UHGV virus genome: UHGV-0123328
DNA from: a virus
DNA: 34,442 nucleotides
Direction: 5' to 3' (one strand)
Part shown: in pieces, positions 3,230 through 16,607 of the stretch
Layout of the letters: every line of letters begins with the position of its first letter
Numbering within the stretch: the stretch's first letter is position 1
Notes under the pieces: model-generated
What the model was told of the DNA's origin: nothing
The model's input: the letters and a program-made list of their open reading frames with translations, nothing else
Database searches by the model: none
Translations under genes and position numbers: made by a program

Positions 3230-3990
3230 AGCCAATAAGAAAACAACTAAATAACAGATCAACGAAACATCAACGCTTTCACCCGATTTGGTCTAAAAAA
3301 TTGACGTTTTCACACATCACTGCTTATACCCGTAATTCTACACAGCAGACAGCGCCACAGCGTCCAATTTTCACCACAGACGACCCAACACACTACCAAC
3401 AAAAACACACGCTCAAAATCGCTCCCGTTGCGTTACACAACCATATAAACAACTTATTTTCAGGTATAACAAAACAACTAAATAACACATATGCCATTCC
3501 CCATAACAACCAACCTCTTTATGGCAGGCTACCGAAAAGACCCACCTCTTCTTCTCAGGCTATCGGACAACCAACCTAACTTTCACAGGCAATCCGAAAA
3601 CATTCATACGCGCAATACCCACGACACGCCATTACCCAAACAGCGAAGAAACACCAGAATCACTGAAACCCCAACGAAGCCTGTAACCGCAAGGTTTCTC
3701 TCAATCCCAAAAGACACGAAACATAACAATCACGGGAAACGCCATTACCCAATACACGAATAACTACAAAAGCCCTTCACGCACTCCAGACAAACAACTC
3801 AAACACAATAACGAAAGCAATCGCCCACCTGCCATTACTCCATACACGGAGAAGAACAATCACCAAAACGACGAGAACACCCCATAGAAGAACCACCGCA
3901 AAACGAACGAAACCACATACACCGACAGAGAGAACAACACGCCCAATTCACCAACAGAAATAGTCGCCGTATAGAACGTTCTGGAAGGGG
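3230..3990 (+). other. A+C-rich, G-depleted non-coding tract with three copies of a GCCATTAC(C/T)C-N-ATACACG motif
   Basis: Extreme strand compositional skew visible by eye. Motif copies at about 3626-3641, 3738-3758 and 3829-3849. Only low-complexity ORFs on the plus strand and none of 60 aa or more on the minus strand. Confidence 0.6.
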
Positions 3991-9614: not shown

Positions 9615-10136
9615 TTAAAACGGAAGGATTCGTTCAACCCAATCGAAGAAAATAAGAATTTTTCTGCCGTCTTTCAACTTAAGTGTGACTAGGCAGGCAT
9701 CAACGCCATCTGACGTTCCCTCAATTTCGCGGCCGTCTGCCATGTAGACCCTTATAGATTGGCCGTTTTGATAAGCCTTGCGACATATCTTAAAAAAATC
9801 ACGACGTGATGGCTGGTTGTCTACATAGTCAGGGTGTATTGTTAGTCTCCCTTTGAAATCGTAATCAATGCCATCAATTACGCCTGATTCAATTGTGCTA
9901 ATGCGCTCAAGTGGGAGCCTTATACGATTTTCTTTGTCAAATGGAGTTGGACAAAGGTCAACTTTGTTACGAGATGACATGAGACCATAAACGTACATGC
10001 AAAACACTTGGCCGTCTTCGAGAGTGACTCTTACAGGAAATTTAGCCCCCCGCCAGAAGAGCAAGGTGCGTTCAGCATGTTCGTAGTCTCGCGGCCATAC
10101 TTCAGCCGGTATGCCGTAGGTGATGTCTTTAACCAT
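9615..10136 (-). CDS. Hypothetical protein (173 aa) with an internally repeated (R)VxLxDG motif
   Basis: ORF with its own terminator. Motifs VRVTLEDGQ, IRVYMADGR and VTLKLKDGR suggest repeated small beta-rich units. Confidence 0.6.
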   Translation of the reverse strand: MVKDITYGIPAEVWPRDYEHAERTLLFWRGAKFPVRVTLEDGQVFCMYVYGLMSSRNKVDLCPTPFDKENRIRLPLERISTIESGVIDGIDYDFKGRLTIHPDYVDNQPSRRDFFKICRKAYQNGQSIRVYMADGREIEGTSDGVDACLVTLKLKDGRKILIFFDWVERILPF

Positions 10137-10238: not shown

Positions 10239-11039
10239 ATGAAGAATGGGATGAATAAAAAATACTCATTAGCATTGTTAATAGCGGCTTTACTATTAAC
10301 AGGTTGTGATTCTGATGAAGAGCGAGCCATAAATCTAGTTGAAAAGGATATTCGCTCTACACTGCTAGATCCTGATGCTGGTCGGTTCACGAATATGCGA
10401 GCTATTCAGTTAGGTGAAAATAGCTATTCATATATGGTATGTGGAGAGGTGAATGGCAAAAACGTCTTGAACGCCTATACAGGTGCGACCGCATTCAATG
10501 CACACATCTTTGATGTTCGTGAACGTAACCCGATTGTATTCGTTACAATGGATAAAAGTACCAACTCGGCAAGAGAACGATTACGTTTTGAACGCCAAAA
10601 TCTAGCATGTAAAGAAAATGGTGTGAAACTTTATCTGGAAAACGAATCTAAAATCAGGAAGGAAAAAGAGAAAATAGATGATTTAAAAAAAACTCCATTA
10701 GGTCAGGCTGTGTTTGATGCTGCAAGTGACTCGACATATGTGAGTAGAGAGTTGGGCGAATCGAGAGGTGTTAGTGAAGTGTATGCAAGAGAAAATGATA
10801 AATATGCCCTTGTTAGCGTCACCAATTATGACACTCCTGACTTTTACAAATTTAGGAAAAAAGACAACGGTGAATTAGAACCTGTTAGAGGGCTGTCTTA
10901 TACCGGCTATCCATTCGCAGTTGCGCTGTGCCATTCTGAACAAACAGATTATGACAAATGCATAACAGAAGAAGAAATCAGGTTGCTTCGAGACGAAAAG
11001 AATAAGCTCGACGATTTTGTCGTACCACCAGAAGAATAA
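10239..11039 (+). CDS. Predicted lipoprotein (266 aa; alternative start ATG 10251)
   Basis: N-terminal signal peptide ending in the lipobox LLTGC; Lys/Glu-rich C-terminal region. Transcribed divergently from the 173-aa gene. Confidence 0.65.
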   Translation: MKNGMNKKYSLALLIAALLLTGCDSDEERAINLVEKDIRSTLLDPDAGRFTNMRAIQLGENSYSYMVCGEVNGKNVLNAYTGATAFNAHIFDVRERNPIVFVTMDKSTNSARERLRFERQNLACKENGVKLYLENESKIRKEKEKIDDLKKTPLGQAVFDAASDSTYVSRELGESRGVSEVYARENDKYALVSVTNYDTPDFYKFRKKDNGELEPVRGLSYTGYPFAVALCHSEQTDYDKCITEEEIRLLRDEKNKLDDFVVPPEE

Positions 11040-11097
11040 CATATACAAAATATTTAATTGCTGTAAAATTTAATCGTTCAGACATAGGGAAAGCCCG

Positions 11098-11140
11098 ACG
11101 CCCTCGACAAATCTTTTTGGTATCGTCGAGGGCGTGTTTC
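11098..11140 (+). terminator. Stem-loop (11-bp perfect stem ACGCCCTCGAC / GTCGAGGGCGT, 16-nt loop) after the lipoprotein gene
   Basis: Perfect inverted repeat followed by GTTTC; weak T-run. Confidence 0.4.
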
Positions 11141-11427
11141 AGATATGCATCCTATTGAACTCTTCAGATTTATAGGTAGATAGCGTTAATTGGCGTTTTT
11201 GTTCTTCTCTTTTTTGCAAATTTCATCACATGCAATATCATCTACTATATTTCTTAGGTCACACGTTTTTATAAATTGTCGCATATATCCTCCGAATTTC
11301 TTCGGAGACGAAGCCTACAAATATCATTCAGCCTATCAAGATCTTTTTTTTTCAGCCGAAGGTATATACATTCAAAAATGTGATGAGTGTCACATGCAGG
11401 TGCTCTCATACACCTGCATGTAGACTA

Positions 11428-11994
11428 TTAATCATTCAATAATCTATATTTTCTTTTGATTAAATCTTCACCTTTTTTGGTGAACACAAAACCAAATTGC
11501 GATTTTTTGTTCAGCCTAAGGACTCTGTTATCCAACGCATCGGTTGATGGAATCAATGTTTGATCATCTATCCAATTAAGTAGCGTAAGAAAGTTCAGCA
11601 GCCTCAACGTTGTTGTGCGAAGCTCTTTCGATATATTTTCAATGCTGGCAATTCGTCTTTCTTTTTTCTCAGGTGGTACAGATAATTGTTCTTGAGGTTT
11701 CGTGGATAGATAATCAATTTCGTTTGCAGCATCGAATGATATGTGTGGCGTTATTTTGCTAAAAAAGCCTTTCGCTGACTCACTTGATAATAAACCAGAC
11801 CTATTCATATCGTTTGTTATTCTGTACAGGAGTGGACTGTGTTTCATTTCAGGATAACGTTGATAAAAGTTAAGCAATTCAAAAGCAGCATTAGCGCCAA
11901 CAAGAAAATCAGAAGGATCGCTGACTTTCCAGAAAGAATGATTTTTCTTAGCGCCAGTGGTGTCAACAAATGATAATTCTTTTAACCAACTCAT
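11428..11994 (-). CDS. Hypothetical protein (188 aa from ATG 11994; ORF track start 12027)
   Basis: Last gene of the minus-strand helicase operon. AAAGGAG Shine-Dalgarno before ATG 11994. Inverted repeat CATGCAGGTG-N8-CACCTGCATG (about 11394-11421) downstream. Confidence 0.6.
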   Translation of the reverse strand: MSWLKELSFVDTTGAKKNHSFWKVSDPSDFLVGANAAFELLNFYQRYPEMKHSPLLYRITNDMNRSGLLSSESAKGFFSKITPHISFDAANEIDYLSTKPQEQLSVPPEKKERRIASIENISKELRTTTLRLLNFLTLLNWIDDQTLIPSTDALDNRVLRLNKKSQFGFVFTKKGEDLIKRKYRLLND

Positions 11995-12027
11995 GATGTG
12001 CTCCTTTCTAACAAGTGAGCACATCAT
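11993..12027 (-). promoter_or_regulatory. Perfect 11-bp inverted repeat (ATGATGTGCTC / GAGCACATCAT) enclosing the ribosome-binding site and start codon of the 188-aa gene
   Basis: On the mRNA strand: AUGAUGUGCUC-acuuguuagaaag-GAGCACAUCAU-G. The Shine-Dalgarno sits in the loop/stem junction and the AUG at the 3' end of the stem. Confidence 0.5.
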
Positions 12028-12059
12028 AGAATTAGTAGATAGGGGGTAAATATGAAATG

Positions 12060-12338
12060 TTACGGCAACCTGCTCAGTATTTCCTCTAAATCTTTTTTTG
12101 TCATATTGGAGTTTTCATAGATGCGCATGATTTTCTCACGCGTCTTAGCGGAAACCCCAACAGCAGATGTGACTTTGTCAAATTCAGCCATAGTCATCGT
12201 CTCCAGAATGGCATTGATAACTTCAGCCTTAGACATCTTGATTTTTTTCTCTTTGAGTTTTATTTGAAATTTTCCAAGTTTTTCATTGGCCTTATCAGAC
12301 AATGCCACTTGGCAATAAGTTGTTTTCTTTTCGCTCAT
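12060..12338 (-). CDS. Hypothetical small protein (92 aa), Lys/Glu-rich
   Basis: ORF starting 3 nt after the helicase stop (translational coupling). Confidence 0.55.
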   Translation of the reverse strand: MSEKKTTYCQVALSDKANEKLGKFQIKLKEKKIKMSKAEVINAILETMTMAEFDKVTSAVGVSAKTREKIMRIYENSNMTKKDLEEILSRLP

Positions 12339-12340
12339 AA

Positions 12341-13900
12341 CTAATCTCGTTTCAGAACTCCAAAATCGAATGCGCCATCAATAGGCAATACACCTTCTGC
12401 AAAGCCAGGTGTGGTGTCGATGATGTGTTTTCGCTCATAAGAGTGAGACAACAGGTATTTGTTGCTAATGTCAATGAAATCAGTGATAAAACACACGTTT
12501 GCCTGATTCTTCTTGGCTCGTAAGCCACGACCGACACGCTGTCTCATTTCAACTTCTGCTTTCCCACCACCAGCAAGAATGACCGCACCAACGCTTGGCA
12601 CATCAACACCAACATCCAGAATAGTCGAGCCTATTAAAACATCTATTTCACCAGACGCTAAACTGTTCAGCTTTGCTTGCCTTGTCGACTGGTTCGATTC
12701 CCCATAAATGAAGTCAACTCTAAGGCCGGACTCTTTCATCATTTCCATCAGGATTTGCCCGTGGCGTTTAAGACGAACCAGAGTCATACAATTGAGAGAA
12801 TGTTGCTTATAGAGCAATGCTTCGCGAACAATGGCCTCATTACGTCCCAAATTATACACGATCCCCAACTGATAAGCCTTTTGGTAGGCTGTGCTCATAC
12901 CTACTCTAAAATTGAGGTGTTTGTTGGCAAGTTCCGCCTTTATTCTGACCTCGTCTGGCTTGTAGGCAACTTTATGATAAAGGAAGTACGGTTTTGCCAG
13001 AATGCCTCGATCAATCAGGTACTTTTCTGTGACTTTGATTTCAATTCGCCCAGCCACAGCCATCAGACGCATGTTGGCTTCTGTAGAATCCTTCATGAAC
13101 GGCGTGGCCGTAAGTGCCAGACGATAGTCTGCGTTCACACATAATCTGGCAATGTCATAGAAATTAGAACCTGAAGACTCATGCGCCTCTTCCAGAATAA
13201 GCAGAGACACACTTGAAAGGAAGCGTTTCACCAAGTCCCGACGTTTGAGGTGGTAGCTCTTCTTATCTGGAGTTGCATCGCGTGGTGGTTCTTCAAGGAA
13301 ACTTGCCAGAGTTTGAACTGTAGCGACGTTGATATGTCGTGATACCTGGAACTCACCAGAGCCAATGACTCCAACCTTTTGGTCTTTTAACCACGGTTCG
13401 CCATTTTCGGCGCGGTAGTCGATGGATCTCTGGAAGTTTTCGGCCATTTGAAACATCAGAACAGAGCGGGTTGTTAAAAATAATGTCATTCGACCGATAC
13501 GTGCAGCTGCTTTGCAGGCAACATTAGATTTCCCGCCACCAGTAGCGATCTGCGCAATCATCATTCCCTCTCGAACCAGTGTTTCCACAGTCTGATCCTG
13601 ATACGCATAATCAGGATTGTATGGGAATGGGTTAACCGCCGGATTTGGTTTACCAAGCGCCGGGGCTTTGTCTTTGCGGATATGAACACATTTGATGCCC
13701 GCCTTGTTCAAGTTCGCCGCTACAGGCTTGGCAAAGCCAGCAGGGAACGAGTTTTTACTCCAGTTGAACATCGTGCTTGTGCCCTTCCAGTCGCCAGTCT
13801 CGACTTCGTAGCTCAACATCTGTTGCACCATTTGCTTTACCTTGTCATCTGCGCCAGAAATAAGCGCATTAACTGCGTTAGATACAATCCGAACAGTCAT
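12341..13900 (-). CDS. Superfamily 2 DEAD/DEAH-box helicase (519 aa), probable phage replication/recombination helicase
   Basis: Motif I ATGGGKS, motif II LILEEAHE, motif III LTATP and motif VI QRVGRGLR. AAGGAAAGAGG Shine-Dalgarno before the ATG at 13900. Confidence 0.8.
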   Translation of the reverse strand: MTVRIVSNAVNALISGADDKVKQMVQQMLSYEVETGDWKGTSTMFNWSKNSFPAGFAKPVAANLNKAGIKCVHIRKDKAPALGKPNPAVNPFPYNPDYAYQDQTVETLVREGMMIAQIATGGGKSNVACKAAARIGRMTLFLTTRSVLMFQMAENFQRSIDYRAENGEPWLKDQKVGVIGSGEFQVSRHINVATVQTLASFLEEPPRDATPDKKSYHLKRRDLVKRFLSSVSLLILEEAHESSGSNFYDIARLCVNADYRLALTATPFMKDSTEANMRLMAVAGRIEIKVTEKYLIDRGILAKPYFLYHKVAYKPDEVRIKAELANKHLNFRVGMSTAYQKAYQLGIVYNLGRNEAIVREALLYKQHSLNCMTLVRLKRHGQILMEMMKESGLRVDFIYGESNQSTRQAKLNSLASGEIDVLIGSTILDVGVDVPSVGAVILAGGGKAEVEMRQRVGRGLRAKKNQANVCFITDFIDISNKYLLSHSYERKHIIDTTPGFAEGVLPIDGAFDFGVLKRD

Positions 13901-13982
13901 AAACCTCTTTCCTTAGTGCCTTTTGTATGTTATTTGGCTATTATAATAAGTAAGTGATTACTTAGTGGATTGTAGCAATAAA

Positions 13983-14663
13983 ATGGATGTAAAAATCACG
14001 ATTTTGCAGGTTGATGTTGCCAACCTTCGCCCGAATACCTGGAACACCAATTCGGTTGGTGCGCAGAATTTTGAAAAACTGAAAGGTTCTATCGAAAAAT
14101 TGGGCTTTTTTAAGCCAATTTTGGCTCGTGAACTTGAAGATGGATTTTTTGAAATCCTCGGCGGCGAACATCGCTGGCGTGCTGCTATTGAGCAAGGAAT
14201 TTCAACGGTTCCGGTGCTTTCTGTGGGCAAAATTAGCGATGTCGTAGCTAAACAGATGTCACTGGTGGACAACGAGCGATACGGTGAAGACGACCAAATC
14301 GCATTGCAACGCTTCATTGAAGAAATTCAGTCAGAACTTGACTATCAACTGTCTGAAATCGCCCCGTATGACGACGAAATCTCGATGGTTTTAGCAAAAG
14401 AGGCGGCAATCGACCTTGAAGCACTGGAGGCGTTGTCTCGTGGTAGTGATGAGCCTGTCGATACCGACAAACGAGAGAAAACCGAACGTGTCGGTGCGGA
14501 ACATCAGACCATGCGCTTCAAAGTAACTTTCGATGCGTCAGATCGCGTTGCAGAAACCATAAAAAACATCATCAAAGACCAGGCAATTAATACTGGCAAT
14601 GAAATGGAAAACGCTGGTGAGGCTCTGGTGTGGCTGGTCGACTACTACAAGGAGCGTATGTAA
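13983..14663 (+). CDS. ParB/Srx N-terminal-domain protein 1 (227 aa from ATG 13983; ORF track starts at GTG 13965)
   Basis: ParB-like N-terminal signature region (…FEILGGEHRWRAAIEQGISTVPV…); acidic C-terminal half. Confidence 0.65.
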   Translation: MDVKITILQVDVANLRPNTWNTNSVGAQNFEKLKGSIEKLGFFKPILARELEDGFFEILGGEHRWRAAIEQGISTVPVLSVGKISDVVAKQMSLVDNERYGEDDQIALQRFIEEIQSELDYQLSEIAPYDDEISMVLAKEAAIDLEALEALSRGSDEPVDTDKREKTERVGAEHQTMRFKVTFDASDRVAETIKNIIKDQAINTGNEMENAGEALVWLVDYYKERM

Positions 14664-15331
14664 TGACCAAAAAGTTTGAAATCGTATATCGCGACCCGGC
14701 AGATCTTATTCCCTATGAGATGAATGCCAAAAAGCATGATGAACAGCAGATCCGAGATCTGGCCGCAGCCATTAAAAAGCGCGGATTTGACCAGCCAATT
14801 ACGGTCGATAAGAACGACGTAATTATTACTGGCCACGGCCGCCGTGAGGCTGCAATTTTTGCTGGACTTGAGCGCGTACCGGTTATTGTTCGCGATGATC
14901 TCAGTGATGACGAGGTTCGTGCGAAGCGCCTTGAAGATAACCGACTTGCCAGCATTGATTACGATGCAATTAAGCTACAGAAAGAGCTTGAGTCGCTTGT
15001 TCTGGACGATATCGAGGTTTTCGGCTTCGAAGAGCGTGAGTTGAATGTTCTCGTTGGCAGTATGACAGAAGAAATGGACACCGACTCGCTAGTTATCGAT
15101 CTTGGCGAAGAAACTAAACGACAGAAGGATGAACACACCGAGATCAGTCGTGAAGTTGCAGCGGAAGAAGTACGTGTTGTCGACGTATTGGGCTTTAAAA
15201 CGCTCCCTGCTGGCTCTGCCATTGTTGTTGGTGATTTGCTTGCCCATATGGAAGAAATGACGGGAGAAAGCGGGGTAGACGCATTTGTGGCATATGCGGA
15301 GAAGATCTCTTCCGGGGAGATGGCTGCATGA
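14663..15331 (+). CDS. ParB/Srx N-terminal-domain protein 2 (222 aa; ORF track start 14630)
   Basis: …ITGHGRREAAIFAGLERVPVIV… ParB-like motif. ATG overlaps the upstream stop (TAATG), with AAGGAG Shine-Dalgarno. Confidence 0.65.
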   Translation: MTKKFEIVYRDPADLIPYEMNAKKHDEQQIRDLAAAIKKRGFDQPITVDKNDVIITGHGRREAAIFAGLERVPVIVRDDLSDDEVRAKRLEDNRLASIDYDAIKLQKELESLVLDDIEVFGFEERELNVLVGSMTEEMDTDSLVIDLGEETKRQKDEHTEISREVAAEEVRVVDVLGFKTLPAGSAIVVGDLLAHMEEMTGESGVDAFVAYAEKISSGEMAA

Positions 15332-15993
15332 GCAAATACATCATCAACGTATCGTTTCAGACACGCGTAAATAAAACCACGCGCACGTTGGAAATCGCTG
15401 AGTCGTTCGGGCTTGGCCTGGACGAAAAAGAGTGGACGCTTTACGACAATCTGGAGCTGGAAGTGAAGCAGGGCGATGTGGTGTACATCACCGGCCAATC
15501 CGGTTCCGGCAAATCCGTTGTGCTGCGCGAGTTGCAACGACAGATGAAGGATGAAGGGCTGTCTGTAGCCTCCATCGATGATTTTACCTTCGATAATGAG
15601 GTTAACGTCATCGATCAGTTGGGCAAAACGACCAGTGATGCGCTTGGGTTGTTATCTATGGCTGGTCTGAACGATGCATATCTGTTTGTTCGCAAGCCTT
15701 CTGAAATGTCAGACGGCCAGAAATATCGTCTCAAGATTGCCAAACTGATTGAGTCAGGCGCTAAAGTATGGGCTGCTGACGAGTTCGGCGCTGTTCTCGA
15801 CCGTGTAACCGCTCAGGTTGTGGCGTCTAACCTCCAGCGTGCCGCTCGAAAGGTTGGTGCGACGGTAATGGTGGCGACGACTCACGAAGACCTGAAGAAC
15901 GCGCTGCGCCCTGATATGCAGATCACCAAGCACTACAAAGAACGCGTGAAGGTGGAATATCACAATGGTAGTCATGATGAGGTCCATTCATGA
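15328..15993 (+). CDS. Minimal ABC-type ATPase (221 aa, nucleotide-binding domain only)
   Basis: Walker A GQSGSGKS, ABC signature-like MSDGQKYRL, Walker B VWAADEF and H-loop ATTHE in canonical order. Start overlaps the upstream stop (ATGA). Confidence 0.7.
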   Translation: MSKYIINVSFQTRVNKTTRTLEIAESFGLGLDEKEWTLYDNLELEVKQGDVVYITGQSGSGKSVVLRELQRQMKDEGLSVASIDDFTFDNEVNVIDQLGKTTSDALGLLSMAGLNDAYLFVRKPSEMSDGQKYRLKIAKLIESGAKVWAADEFGAVLDRVTAQVVASNLQRAARKVGATVMVATTHEDLKNALRPDMQITKHYKERVKVEYHNGSHDEVHS

Positions 15994-16607
15994 CGGACAT
16001 CATCATTAAACGCTACCGCCCTGAAGAGTTTCCGCGTCATCTGGACTTTCTGGAGCGAATGACTGTTACAAAGGGAACTGTAGAGGACTGGCACGCTCTT
16101 AAGTCGCTTCACTACAAAACAGACGGCAAACCTTTCGCGCCAACTTACTATCGCTGCGAACTTGATGACCGTCTGGTGGGCGTCGTGGTTATGGCTTACC
16201 CGAAACTACTGTTGGCACCTCGCCACCGCATGTTTCCTAAGTTGAAACCAACCACTAATACCACCGTGGCTAACCAGTACTGGGGTCGGTACGTGAATAA
16301 CAACTTTGCGGTGATCAGTCGCTCAGTTGTGGATACTCAGTATCGTGGCGTAGGCGTCTCTTATAGAATGATTAACCTGGTTAGCAGGATGCATGACCGG
16401 CCAATCATTGAGATCCAGTCCTCGATGAGCAAATACAATCCCTTCGCCATGAAAGCAGGGTTTAAGTTCATCCGCCCTGAGCGACCGAAGAGCTATGAAA
16501 GTGCACTGCGTGTATTCCAGCGCCATTTCCGTTCCGACCCGGGTGATAACGAGGCGATCGTCAAAGAGTTGTTCGCAATGAGCGAGTCTCGTCGTCGCCG
16601 TGCGTGA
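15990..16607 (+). CDS. GNAT-fold (acetyltransferase-like) protein (205 aa)
   Basis: Motif-A-like VVDTQYRGVGVSYRMINLV and motif-B-like NPFAMKAGFKFI. Start overlaps the upstream stop (ATGA). Confidence 0.5.
   Translation: MTDIIIKRYRPEEFPRHLDFLERMTVTKGTVEDWHALKSLHYKTDGKPFAPTYYRCELDDRLVGVVVMAYPKLLLAPRHRMFPKLKPTTNTTVANQYWGRYVNNNFAVISRSVVDTQYRGVGVSYRMINLVSRMHDRPIIEIQSSMSKYNPFAMKAGFKFIRPERPKSYESALRVFQRHFRSDPGDNEAIVKELFAMSESRRRRA

Follow-up and report, generated by a model that had tools for sequence, protein, structure and literature searches.

The locus at positions 11428-13900 of UHGV virus genome UHGV-0123328 (34,442 nucleotides; this whole stretch of DNA is referred to below as the window) carries three minus-strand open reading frames (ORFs), encoding proteins of 519, 92 and 188 amino acids (aa). 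We propose, with a probability of about 0.7, that the first two genes form a core unit with a UvsW-type helicase, that the third is an optional, silenced gene for a DNA-binding protein, and that the locus is neither a defence system nor the source of the replicative helicase. With Escherichia phage Cyrano the region shares 98.8% identity, and with Salmonella phage SSU5 ~80%, the latter in the helicase and ParB part only, and every match in complete E. coli genomes (258/258) lies on a plasmid of ~105-115 kb. The window is therefore from an SSU5-type phage-plasmid. Such elements are common in clinical E. coli, Shigella, Salmonella Typhi, Klebsiella and Yersinia pestis (pMT1), and their biology has barely been studied. 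The helicase is of a known kind, UvsW-type, and its orthologue is already named "UvsW helicase" in the Cyrano record; the 92-aa and 188-aa proteins belong to uncharacterised families and are modest leads, not parts of a new kind of system. The two widespread small-protein families are reasonable experimental targets, and current understanding is not overturned.

All three ORFs are real genes, because each matches a PHROG family, homologues number in the hundreds, the ratios of non-synonymous to synonymous substitution (dN/dS) are low, and an RNA-seq signal is present in the near-identical Cyrano. Pairwise dN/dS was used only where synonymous sites were unsaturated. A preliminary description of this DNA had presented the locus as a three-gene minus-strand module in which both small proteins are coupled to the helicase. 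The ORFs and their coordinates are unchanged, and so is the coupling of genes 1 and 2, where the ATG of the 92-aa gene follows the helicase stop codon after 2 nucleotides (nt). The single unit does not survive: the helicase and 92-aa genes are a core co-transcribed pair, and the 188-aa gene is optional and separately controlled, being set off by a 65-nt gap, a strong hairpin, 12-fold less RNA and, in Providencia, a terminator.

Expression was taken from published RNA-seq of strain LF82 carrying Cyrano, in five conditions. CYRAN_117, the orthologue of the 92-aa gene, is among the few Cyrano genes expressed 12-fold above the prophage background (PMC9928086). After overnight growth in lysogeny broth (LB), CYRAN_117 stands at 114, the helicase at 46, the 188-aa gene at 9 and the divergent ParB gene at 5, the floor (PMC9928086 supplementary table). 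The same order (92-aa > helicase > 188-aa > ParB) is seen in all five conditions, with 92-aa RNA at 2.5-4 times the helicase RNA; gene 3 RNA is ~12-fold below that of gene 2. Both genes of the core pair are therefore transcribed while the element is a plasmid, and such transcription of a UvsW-type core helicase suggests that recombination or R-loop processing contributes to plasmid maintenance or to the lytic switch.

The helicase and the recombination genes of the element

The 519-aa protein gave Pfam matches above cut-off to ResIII, DEAD and Helicase_C (domain spans 99-270 and 364-462) and matched PHROG 16, "DNA helicase", at E=6e-94. When the single sequence was searched against solved chains, archaeal XPBII ranked first and T4 UvsW fifth, both in the motor only. 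With a profile made from six diverse homologues, T4 UvsW (2oca_A) ranked first in the PDB at E=6.8e-22, and XPBII was matched at E=1e-18. SF2 motifs I, II, III and VI, spread over two RecA-like domains, are represented by four sequences that are invariant in the six homologues: GGGKS (121-125), EEAH (237-240), TATP (264-267) and QRxGRGLR (454-461). The preliminary description had placed the start of the helicase motifs near residue 120, in agreement with the position of GGGKS, and had named an SF2 (superfamily 2) DEAH helicase; the superfamily is right and the literal DEAH is not, motif II being E237-E-A-H240.

The N-terminal region of ~95 residues, described earlier as an extension without recognisable motif, is on sequence grounds a UvsW-type N-terminal domain, because the profile alignment with UvsW runs through residues 16-95. 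In HMMER, profile positions 16-204 were aligned with UvsW residues 16-216, with an independent domain E-value (i-E-value) of 0.005 within the whole-sequence E of 6.8e-22. The block LSYEvdGa...W.G.S..F....FPaGF...L..aG, conserved in the six diverse homologues, is aligned with FSFEADGYRF..W.GRIRLL....LPFGLVGQIKKFCDNFG of UvsW. These 95 residues would be a nucleic-acid-binding domain of the UvsW type. Length is conserved as well: 1003 plasmids encode the protein in full, from residue 3, among them phage-plasmids of Acinetobacter (42% identity) and Methylobacterium (41%). The pairwise dN/dS is 0.04-0.06.

T4 UvsW promotes branch migration and the reactivation of stalled forks, and it stabilises the D-loops that serve recombination-dependent replication; D10, a helicase of the siphophage T5, has shown branch-migration activity, and its closest characterised homologues are UvsW and XPB (PMC5180179). 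The window helicase resembles UvsW (2OCA) in having an SF2 motor joined to the same N-terminal domain (alignment over UvsW 16-216 and 220-459), and in being encoded by an element that also encodes UvsX/RecA-, UvsY-, gp32- and gp46/47-like proteins. It differs from UvsW in being distant in sequence, with a shortened Arg/aromatic loop and an insertion between motifs Ib and II, and in being transcribed in a lysogenic plasmid state, which the virulent T4 does not have. To D10 it is likened by the description of that enzyme, the window helicase itself falling in the broad phage family PHROG 16; effects of substrate sequence have been seen for D10. The archaeal XPB/Rad25 proteins (e.g., Sulfolobus XPBII, 6P4F) are the second-best solved relatives (E=1e-18) and share both RecA-like domains, but their alignment begins at the motor only (query position 104), the N-domain aligning with UvsW instead. 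Scores against the NCBIfam XPB model NF045503 (49.8 bits, cut-off 610) and the rad25 model TIGR00603 (26.7 bits, cut-off 328.7) are far below threshold. None of the papers searched deals with this helicase in SSU5-type elements.

By the depositors' annotation, SSU5 encodes a DnaB-like replicative helicase beside a primase (SSU5_039/040) as well as a ligase, a DNA polymerase, a single-stranded DNA-binding protein (SSB), an exonuclease, a recombinase, an SbcCD-like pair and RNase H. The Cyrano annotation lists CYRAN_32/33 as DNA helicase and primase, together with Pol III alpha, RepA, UvsY, a gp32-like SSB, RecA, SbcCD and RuvC. The UvsW-type helicase sits within this T4-like recombination toolkit. 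By analogy with T4 UvsW and T5 D10, it would remodel branched DNA, i.e., R-loops, D-loops, stalled forks and Holliday junctions, and would act with the element's RecA/UvsX, UvsY, gp32-like SSB, SbcCD and RuvC, while the replisome would use the separate DnaB-like helicase and primase.

The preliminary description took the protein most simply for the phage replication helicase, assisted by accessory factors. Its assignment to phage DNA metabolism rather than to defence stands, and the fact that the helicase is a core gene of a large phage genome that brings replication genes of its own agrees with a role as the replicative helicase of lytic replication, the small proteins then being its loader and an accessory factor. 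The enzyme is, however, a monomer-type SF2 protein matched only by SF2 families and not a member of DnaB/superfamily 4 (SF4), and given the separate DnaB-like helicase and primase pairs of SSU5 and Cyrano, it is therefore not the replicative helicase. Nor do the small proteins match any loader or primase family in Pfam, PHROG or NCBIfam, and the gene is located away from the replication module and faces the ParB and packaging genes. Homology of all three proteins to replisome parts, which had been named beforehand as the outcome that would refute the preliminary description, was not found, the two small proteins matching nothing known. A replicative role is very improbable.

The other possibility raised at the outset was an anti-phage defence or exclusion module, with the helicase as sensor or effector and two small partners. 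Some similarity to defence helicases does exist: the helicase core matches PADLOC PbeA (E=4e-23), TIGR04095 (E=4e-16) and, at a weaker level, helicases of Dnd, Dpd and Druantia; the distribution of gene 3 is sporadic and its slot variable, and SSU5-group elements carry defence systems elsewhere (bioRxiv 2025.09.12.675607). These matches cover only the generic SF2 core, however (253-635 of 672 positions in the PbeA profile, the C-terminal RecA domain in the others, and 59 bits against a cut-off of 600 for TIGR04095, the NCBIfam model for Dnd restriction). The helicase model of no such system (Pbe, Dnd restriction, Dpd, Druantia, DISARM) was matched over its full length. Among partners and neighbours, the 92-aa, lipoprotein, FljA-like and 216-aa proteins have no PADLOC match below E=0.001, and the 188-aa protein has a marginal one to SspC (E=0.0073). 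The trio contains no nuclease, toxin or other effector domain, the helicase and 92-aa genes are core genes (1003 and 790 plasmids) rather than island cargo, with only gene 3 patchy (179), and the UvsW-type N-domain and the matching T4-like recombination set in the element speak against defence as well. We regard a defence function as scarcely credible. UvsW-type helicases have been reported as triggers of a retron defence (PMC12746101), so that the helicase could be a liability in some hosts.

One further region of the window may concern an enzyme of this type. Positions 3230-3960 (~730 bp) are 70-78% A+C on the plus strand, with G at 8-15%, contain no convincing ORF and are 70% identical to SSU5 90524-91332. 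As a speculation, R-loops could arise from a G-rich minus-strand transcript of this region and would then bear on a UvsW-type helicase.

The 92-aa protein

The second gene encodes a protein that, from its sequence, is basic and fast-evolving under purifying selection. In tblastn searches it was found in 790 plasmids (Klebsiella, Escherichia, Enterobacter, Yersinia pestis, Salmonella and others), and it comes directly after the helicase gene in all 11 enterobacterial SSU5-type loci inspected, among them Cyrano, SSU5, Providencia, a metagenome contig, two E. coli plasmids, Klebsiella, Pectobacterium, Enterobacter and L016. Conservation across relatives thus holds for the helicase and 92-aa core and not for the trio as a whole. 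The pair diverge at very different rates: identity with SSU5 is 58% for the 92-aa protein vs 92% for the helicase, and with Providencia 26% vs 58%. The dN of the 92-aa gene is 6-18 times that of the helicase, with a dN/dS of ~0.08 from the single informative comparison, in which dS was 1.07 and hence near saturation. Between the window and plasmid pECAZ162_2, dS rises from 0.13 in the helicase gene to 1.07 in the 92-aa gene; this jump at 12338-12341 indicates a recombination breakpoint at the helicase/92-aa junction.

No significant match for the protein was found in Pfam (even at E=10), NCBIfam or the PDB, and its own family, PHROG 1466, has no assigned function. Residues 6-48 read as a strand (YCQVALS), a helix, a K-M-S turn and a second helix, a pattern like that of the ribbon-helix-helix proteins CopG, Arc and ParG, from which the 92-aa protein differs by an extra helical tail of 45 residues. 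The AlphaFold2 (AF2) model has a predicted local distance difference test score (pLDDT) of 50.6 and is all-helical, the helices spanning 15-30 and 37-47, and the monomer shows no strand; it was too poor for a fold search. The protein may be a small, dimeric ribbon-helix-helix DNA-binding protein, either a regulator or a companion that would direct the helicase to DNA. An autoregulatory role through an allele-specific site in the helicase-ParB intergenic region is not indicated, because that region is conserved while the 92-aa alleles diverge.

The position of the gene calls to mind uvsW.1, a conserved ORF of 76 aa directly downstream of uvsW in T4-like phages (PMC1524935). Like UvsW.1 (2JPN), the 92-aa protein is encoded by a small ORF directly 3' of a UvsW-type helicase gene, and it is the positional analogue of UvsW.1; unlike a homologue, it is unrelated in sequence, and UvsW.1 was not among the PDB matches of the 92-aa profile. 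The Acinetobacter and Methylobacterium relatives likewise have a small ORF downstream of the helicase gene, of 97 and 66 aa, respectively, and the 97-aa protein matches RHH_4 at E=0.025, below the cut-off. It could be argued from the shared position, from these further examples, from the all-helical prediction and from co-transcription with the helicase that the protein is a functional equivalent of UvsW.1, i.e., a helicase-binding subunit that modulates unwinding or annealing instead of regulating transcription. On the other side stand the lack of any sequence or profile similarity, the basic character of the protein as against the acidic tail of UvsW.1, the swapping of 92-aa alleles by recombination beside an almost unchanged helicase, and RNA levels 2.5-4 times those of the helicase; a small downstream ORF is weak evidence in itself. 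We consider this equivalence possible, though doubtful.

The optional third gene and its control

Read from its first ATG, the third ORF spans 11428-12027 and encodes 199 aa. The start is most likely ATG 11994, giving 188 aa, because AAGGAG lies 6 nt upstream, PHROG 13473 has a length of 188 and matches residues 12-199, and homologues begin at this point. The family is small: an exhaustive search of 1.84 billion cluster representatives yielded 11, and word-indexed searches likewise found only the protein's own small family. By tblastn, the gene is present in 179 plasmids, about a fifth of the relatives, and is absent from most, including SSU5. Its pairwise dN/dS is 0.11-0.20. The order helicase, 94 aa, and 205 or 212 aa is kept in a Providencia contig of plasmid size and in a metagenome contig, with 21-25% identity in the third protein and 58% in the helicase. 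Gene 3 has probably been part of the locus since early in the history of the group and has often been lost since. Its slot is occupied by a lipoprotein gene in SSU5, by a 154-aa gene in pECAZ162_2, and by the 188-aa gene plus two others in p09EL50; the alternative cargo has no Pfam match above cut-off and no PADLOC match.

For the 188-aa protein itself, Pfam gave nothing up to E=10, and neither NCBIfam nor a PDB sequence search gave a significant match. The preliminary description had given both small proteins their correct sizes and had recognised no motif in either, which remains true of sequence families, but the model of the 188-aa protein contains a MerR-like winged helix. In the AF2 model, computed with nine sequences (mean pLDDT 76), a disordered linker (87-112) separates the N-terminal helical domain from a C-terminal domain (113-188, pLDDT 84-89) that superposes with solved MerR-type DNA-binding domains. 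Proteins with domains of this type include pSK1 Par, RacA, the MerR regulators, excisionases and KilAC antirepressor domains; here the winged helix differs in being C-terminal, after a novel domain and a disordered linker. In contrast to MerR regulators, the 188-aa protein has neither the MerR coiled coil nor an effector domain, and it has no sequence-family match. From the model, gene 3 would encode a DNA-binding protein composed of a novel N-domain and a MerR-like winged helix. The Pectobacterium plasmid Drgb1 (L014 3456-3845) keeps only the N-domain of this family (129 aa), and N-domain-only copies of 114-129 aa are also found among E. coli proteins (P0006-P0010); either the N-domain can stand alone or these copies are decaying.

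Upstream of gene 3 lies a perfect 11-nt inverted repeat (11993-12003/12017-12027). The predicted RNA fold (-29 kcal/mol, z=-6.4) pairs both AAGGAG and AUG, and this anti-Shine-Dalgarno design, with related or quite different arms, occurs in five lineages. It is found in the P0005 lineage and, with the related arms TTCATCATGTGCTC/GAGCACATGATGAA, in Klebsiella and Enterobacter; the metagenome contig L004 has the unrelated arms ATTCACTCCGT/ACGGAGTGAAT, and Pectobacterium has a weaker version. The loop measures 13-14 nt in some lineages vs 22 nt in others, and the variable loop length together with the constant location of the Shine-Dalgarno sequence in the 3' arm speaks for an RNA element rather than a dimer operator. 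In Providencia, a canonical intrinsic terminator follows gene 2 in place of the hairpin. A promoter-like site (TTTACC-16-TATGAT, 12050-12023) lies upstream of gene 3 and could not be confirmed in relatives. The hairpin that follows the stop codon of gene 3 (Table 1) has no well-defined T-run, and the terminator scan did not pick it up.

Given the hairpin and the 12-fold drop in RNA in Cyrano, gene 3 is therefore not a co-expressed member of a three-gene operon. It would be nearly silent at two levels, with little RNA arriving and with its ribosome-binding site and start codon buried in the conserved hairpin, and its product would most likely be a conditionally expressed regulator, not a helicase subunit.

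Silencing of this kind is common for toxic or switch proteins, and genes 2 and 3 might instead be read as a regulatory or toxin-antitoxin-like pair, in which a ribbon-helix-helix antitoxin or repressor controls a harmful or switch protein and the helicase is a mere neighbour. Gene 2 is indeed expressed in the lysogen while gene 3 is silenced at the RNA and translation levels, and a small ribbon-helix-helix-like gene placed first resembles the order of type II systems. Against such a pairing, gene 2 occurs without gene 3 in ~600 plasmids, including SSU5 (790 vs 179), gene 3 has a predicted DNA-binding fold and not a toxin fold, with no toxin match in PADLOC or Pfam, and the two genes are 65 nt apart, with a terminator between their counterparts in Providencia. 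We hold this pairing to be improbable.

A wider scheme may be sketched, although we think it unlikely. A UvsW-type helicase with a tiny, fast-diverging partner would be an old two-gene architecture common to T4-like phages (UvsW/UvsW.1) and to SSU5-, Acinetobacter- and Methylobacterium-type phage-plasmids, the partners having drifted too far apart to be recognised. The partner, made in the plasmid state, would gate or target the helicase, deciding for example whether R-loop or RepA-driven theta replication is preserved or is dismantled for recombination-dependent lytic replication, and the silenced gene 3 would provide the DNA-binding trigger of the switch.

Weight of the evidence and features around the locus

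Several observations count against the proposal of a helicase/92-aa core with an optional, silenced third gene. The functions given to the three proteins are all predictions from sequence or from models; biochemical activities, DNA binding by the 92-aa protein and any contact between helicase and partner are inferred. The N-domains of the window and SSU5 have an Arg/aromatic loop (ETGD-WKGTS) 4-9 residues shorter than that of the other four homologues; the loop is present in those from Providencia, Acinetobacter and Methylobacterium. That different 92-aa alleles stand beside near-identical helicases argues, at the sequence level, against a tight co-evolving complex. For the ribbon-helix-helix fold, hhalign brought the turn and its flanking helices A and B into register with CopG at a probability of 4%, no family of this fold was matched in Pfam up to E=10, and the AF2 model was unusable. 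Homology of the 92-aa protein with UvsW.1, whose sequence was verified against 2jpn_A, was rejected (hhalign probability 0.1%), and profile comparison detected none with its positional counterpart of 97 aa in Acinetobacter. Alternatively, the gene 3 hairpin could serve as an operator in the DNA or stabilise the 3' end of the mRNA upstream. Finally, the RNA-seq values are those of Cyrano and not of the exact window sequence.

Table 1. Features of the locus and of related loci (window coordinates unless a relative is named)
Feature	Position	Strand	Basis
UvsW-family SF2 helicase gene, 519 aa	12341-13900	-	Pfam, PHROG 16, profile vs PDB, Cyrano record label
Putative UvsW-type N-terminal domain of helicase, residues 1-95	13616-13900	-	Hidden Markov model (HMM) alignment to UvsW 16-216
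Helicase motor core, residues 98-490	12431-13609	-	Invariant motifs, Pfam spans
92-aa gene, PHROG 1466	12060-12338	-	2 nt past helicase stop
188-aa gene, PHROG 13473, optional	11428-11994	-	ATG 11994
N-terminal helical domain of 188-aa protein, residues 1-86 (predicted)	11737-11994	-	No known fold match
C-terminal MerR-like winged helix-turn-helix domain, residues 113-188 (predicted)	11431-11658	-	AF2 model
Hairpin pairing Shine-Dalgarno (12001-12006) and start codon of gene 3	11985-12036	-	Inverted repeat, RNA fold
Anti-Shine-Dalgarno hairpin in relatives	L011 2960-3005; L004 5950-6000; L014 3415-3460		
Hairpin after gene 3 stop, likely transcript end	11392-11421	-	Perfect 11-nt inverted repeat, 8-nt loop
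Divergent control region, helicase gene/first ParB-like gene	13901-13982	.	Alignment of nine relatives

In the divergent control region, TGnTACAAT and TATAAT boxes and a TAAG..CTTA palindrome are conserved in six Enterobacteriaceae relatives of the nine aligned, and the TATAAT is recognisable in most of the non-Enterobacteriaceae relatives. A consensus promoter scan called no site there, and promoter and terminator scans gave no enrichment explaining regulation; an Rfam scan of 10900-14100 gave no match.

Divergent from the helicase gene are two ParB-N proteins and an ABC-type ATPase, followed by small genes (13965-16607, plus strand) and then, immediately downstream, by the terminase and structural genes. 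The true start of the first ParB-like gene is probably ATG 13983 (MDVKIT), not GTG 13965. The helicase gene is always divergent from the ParB/ParB/ABC-ATPase cluster in the relatives, a layout that is kept from SSU5 to the Acinetobacter and Methylobacterium phage-plasmids. The cluster may serve in packaging, partition or DNA modification.

The other flank of the trio carries a lipoprotein gene and an FljA-like gene. The latter (9615-10136, minus strand) encodes, on an E. coli phage-plasmid, a full-length homologue of FljA, the Salmonella phase-1 flagellin repressor (Flag1_repress, E=2e-79), and the expression of its Cyrano orthologue, CYRAN_114, rises from log2 ~4.2 in LB to ~7-8 in the macrophage-medium and macrophage samples. 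The 266-aa lipoprotein gene (10239-11039, plus strand; PHROG 20234) lies in a variable slot and behaves in Cyrano lysogens in a manner resembling lysogenic conversion, with a value of 29 in LB overnight culture and up to log2 ~9 in other conditions.

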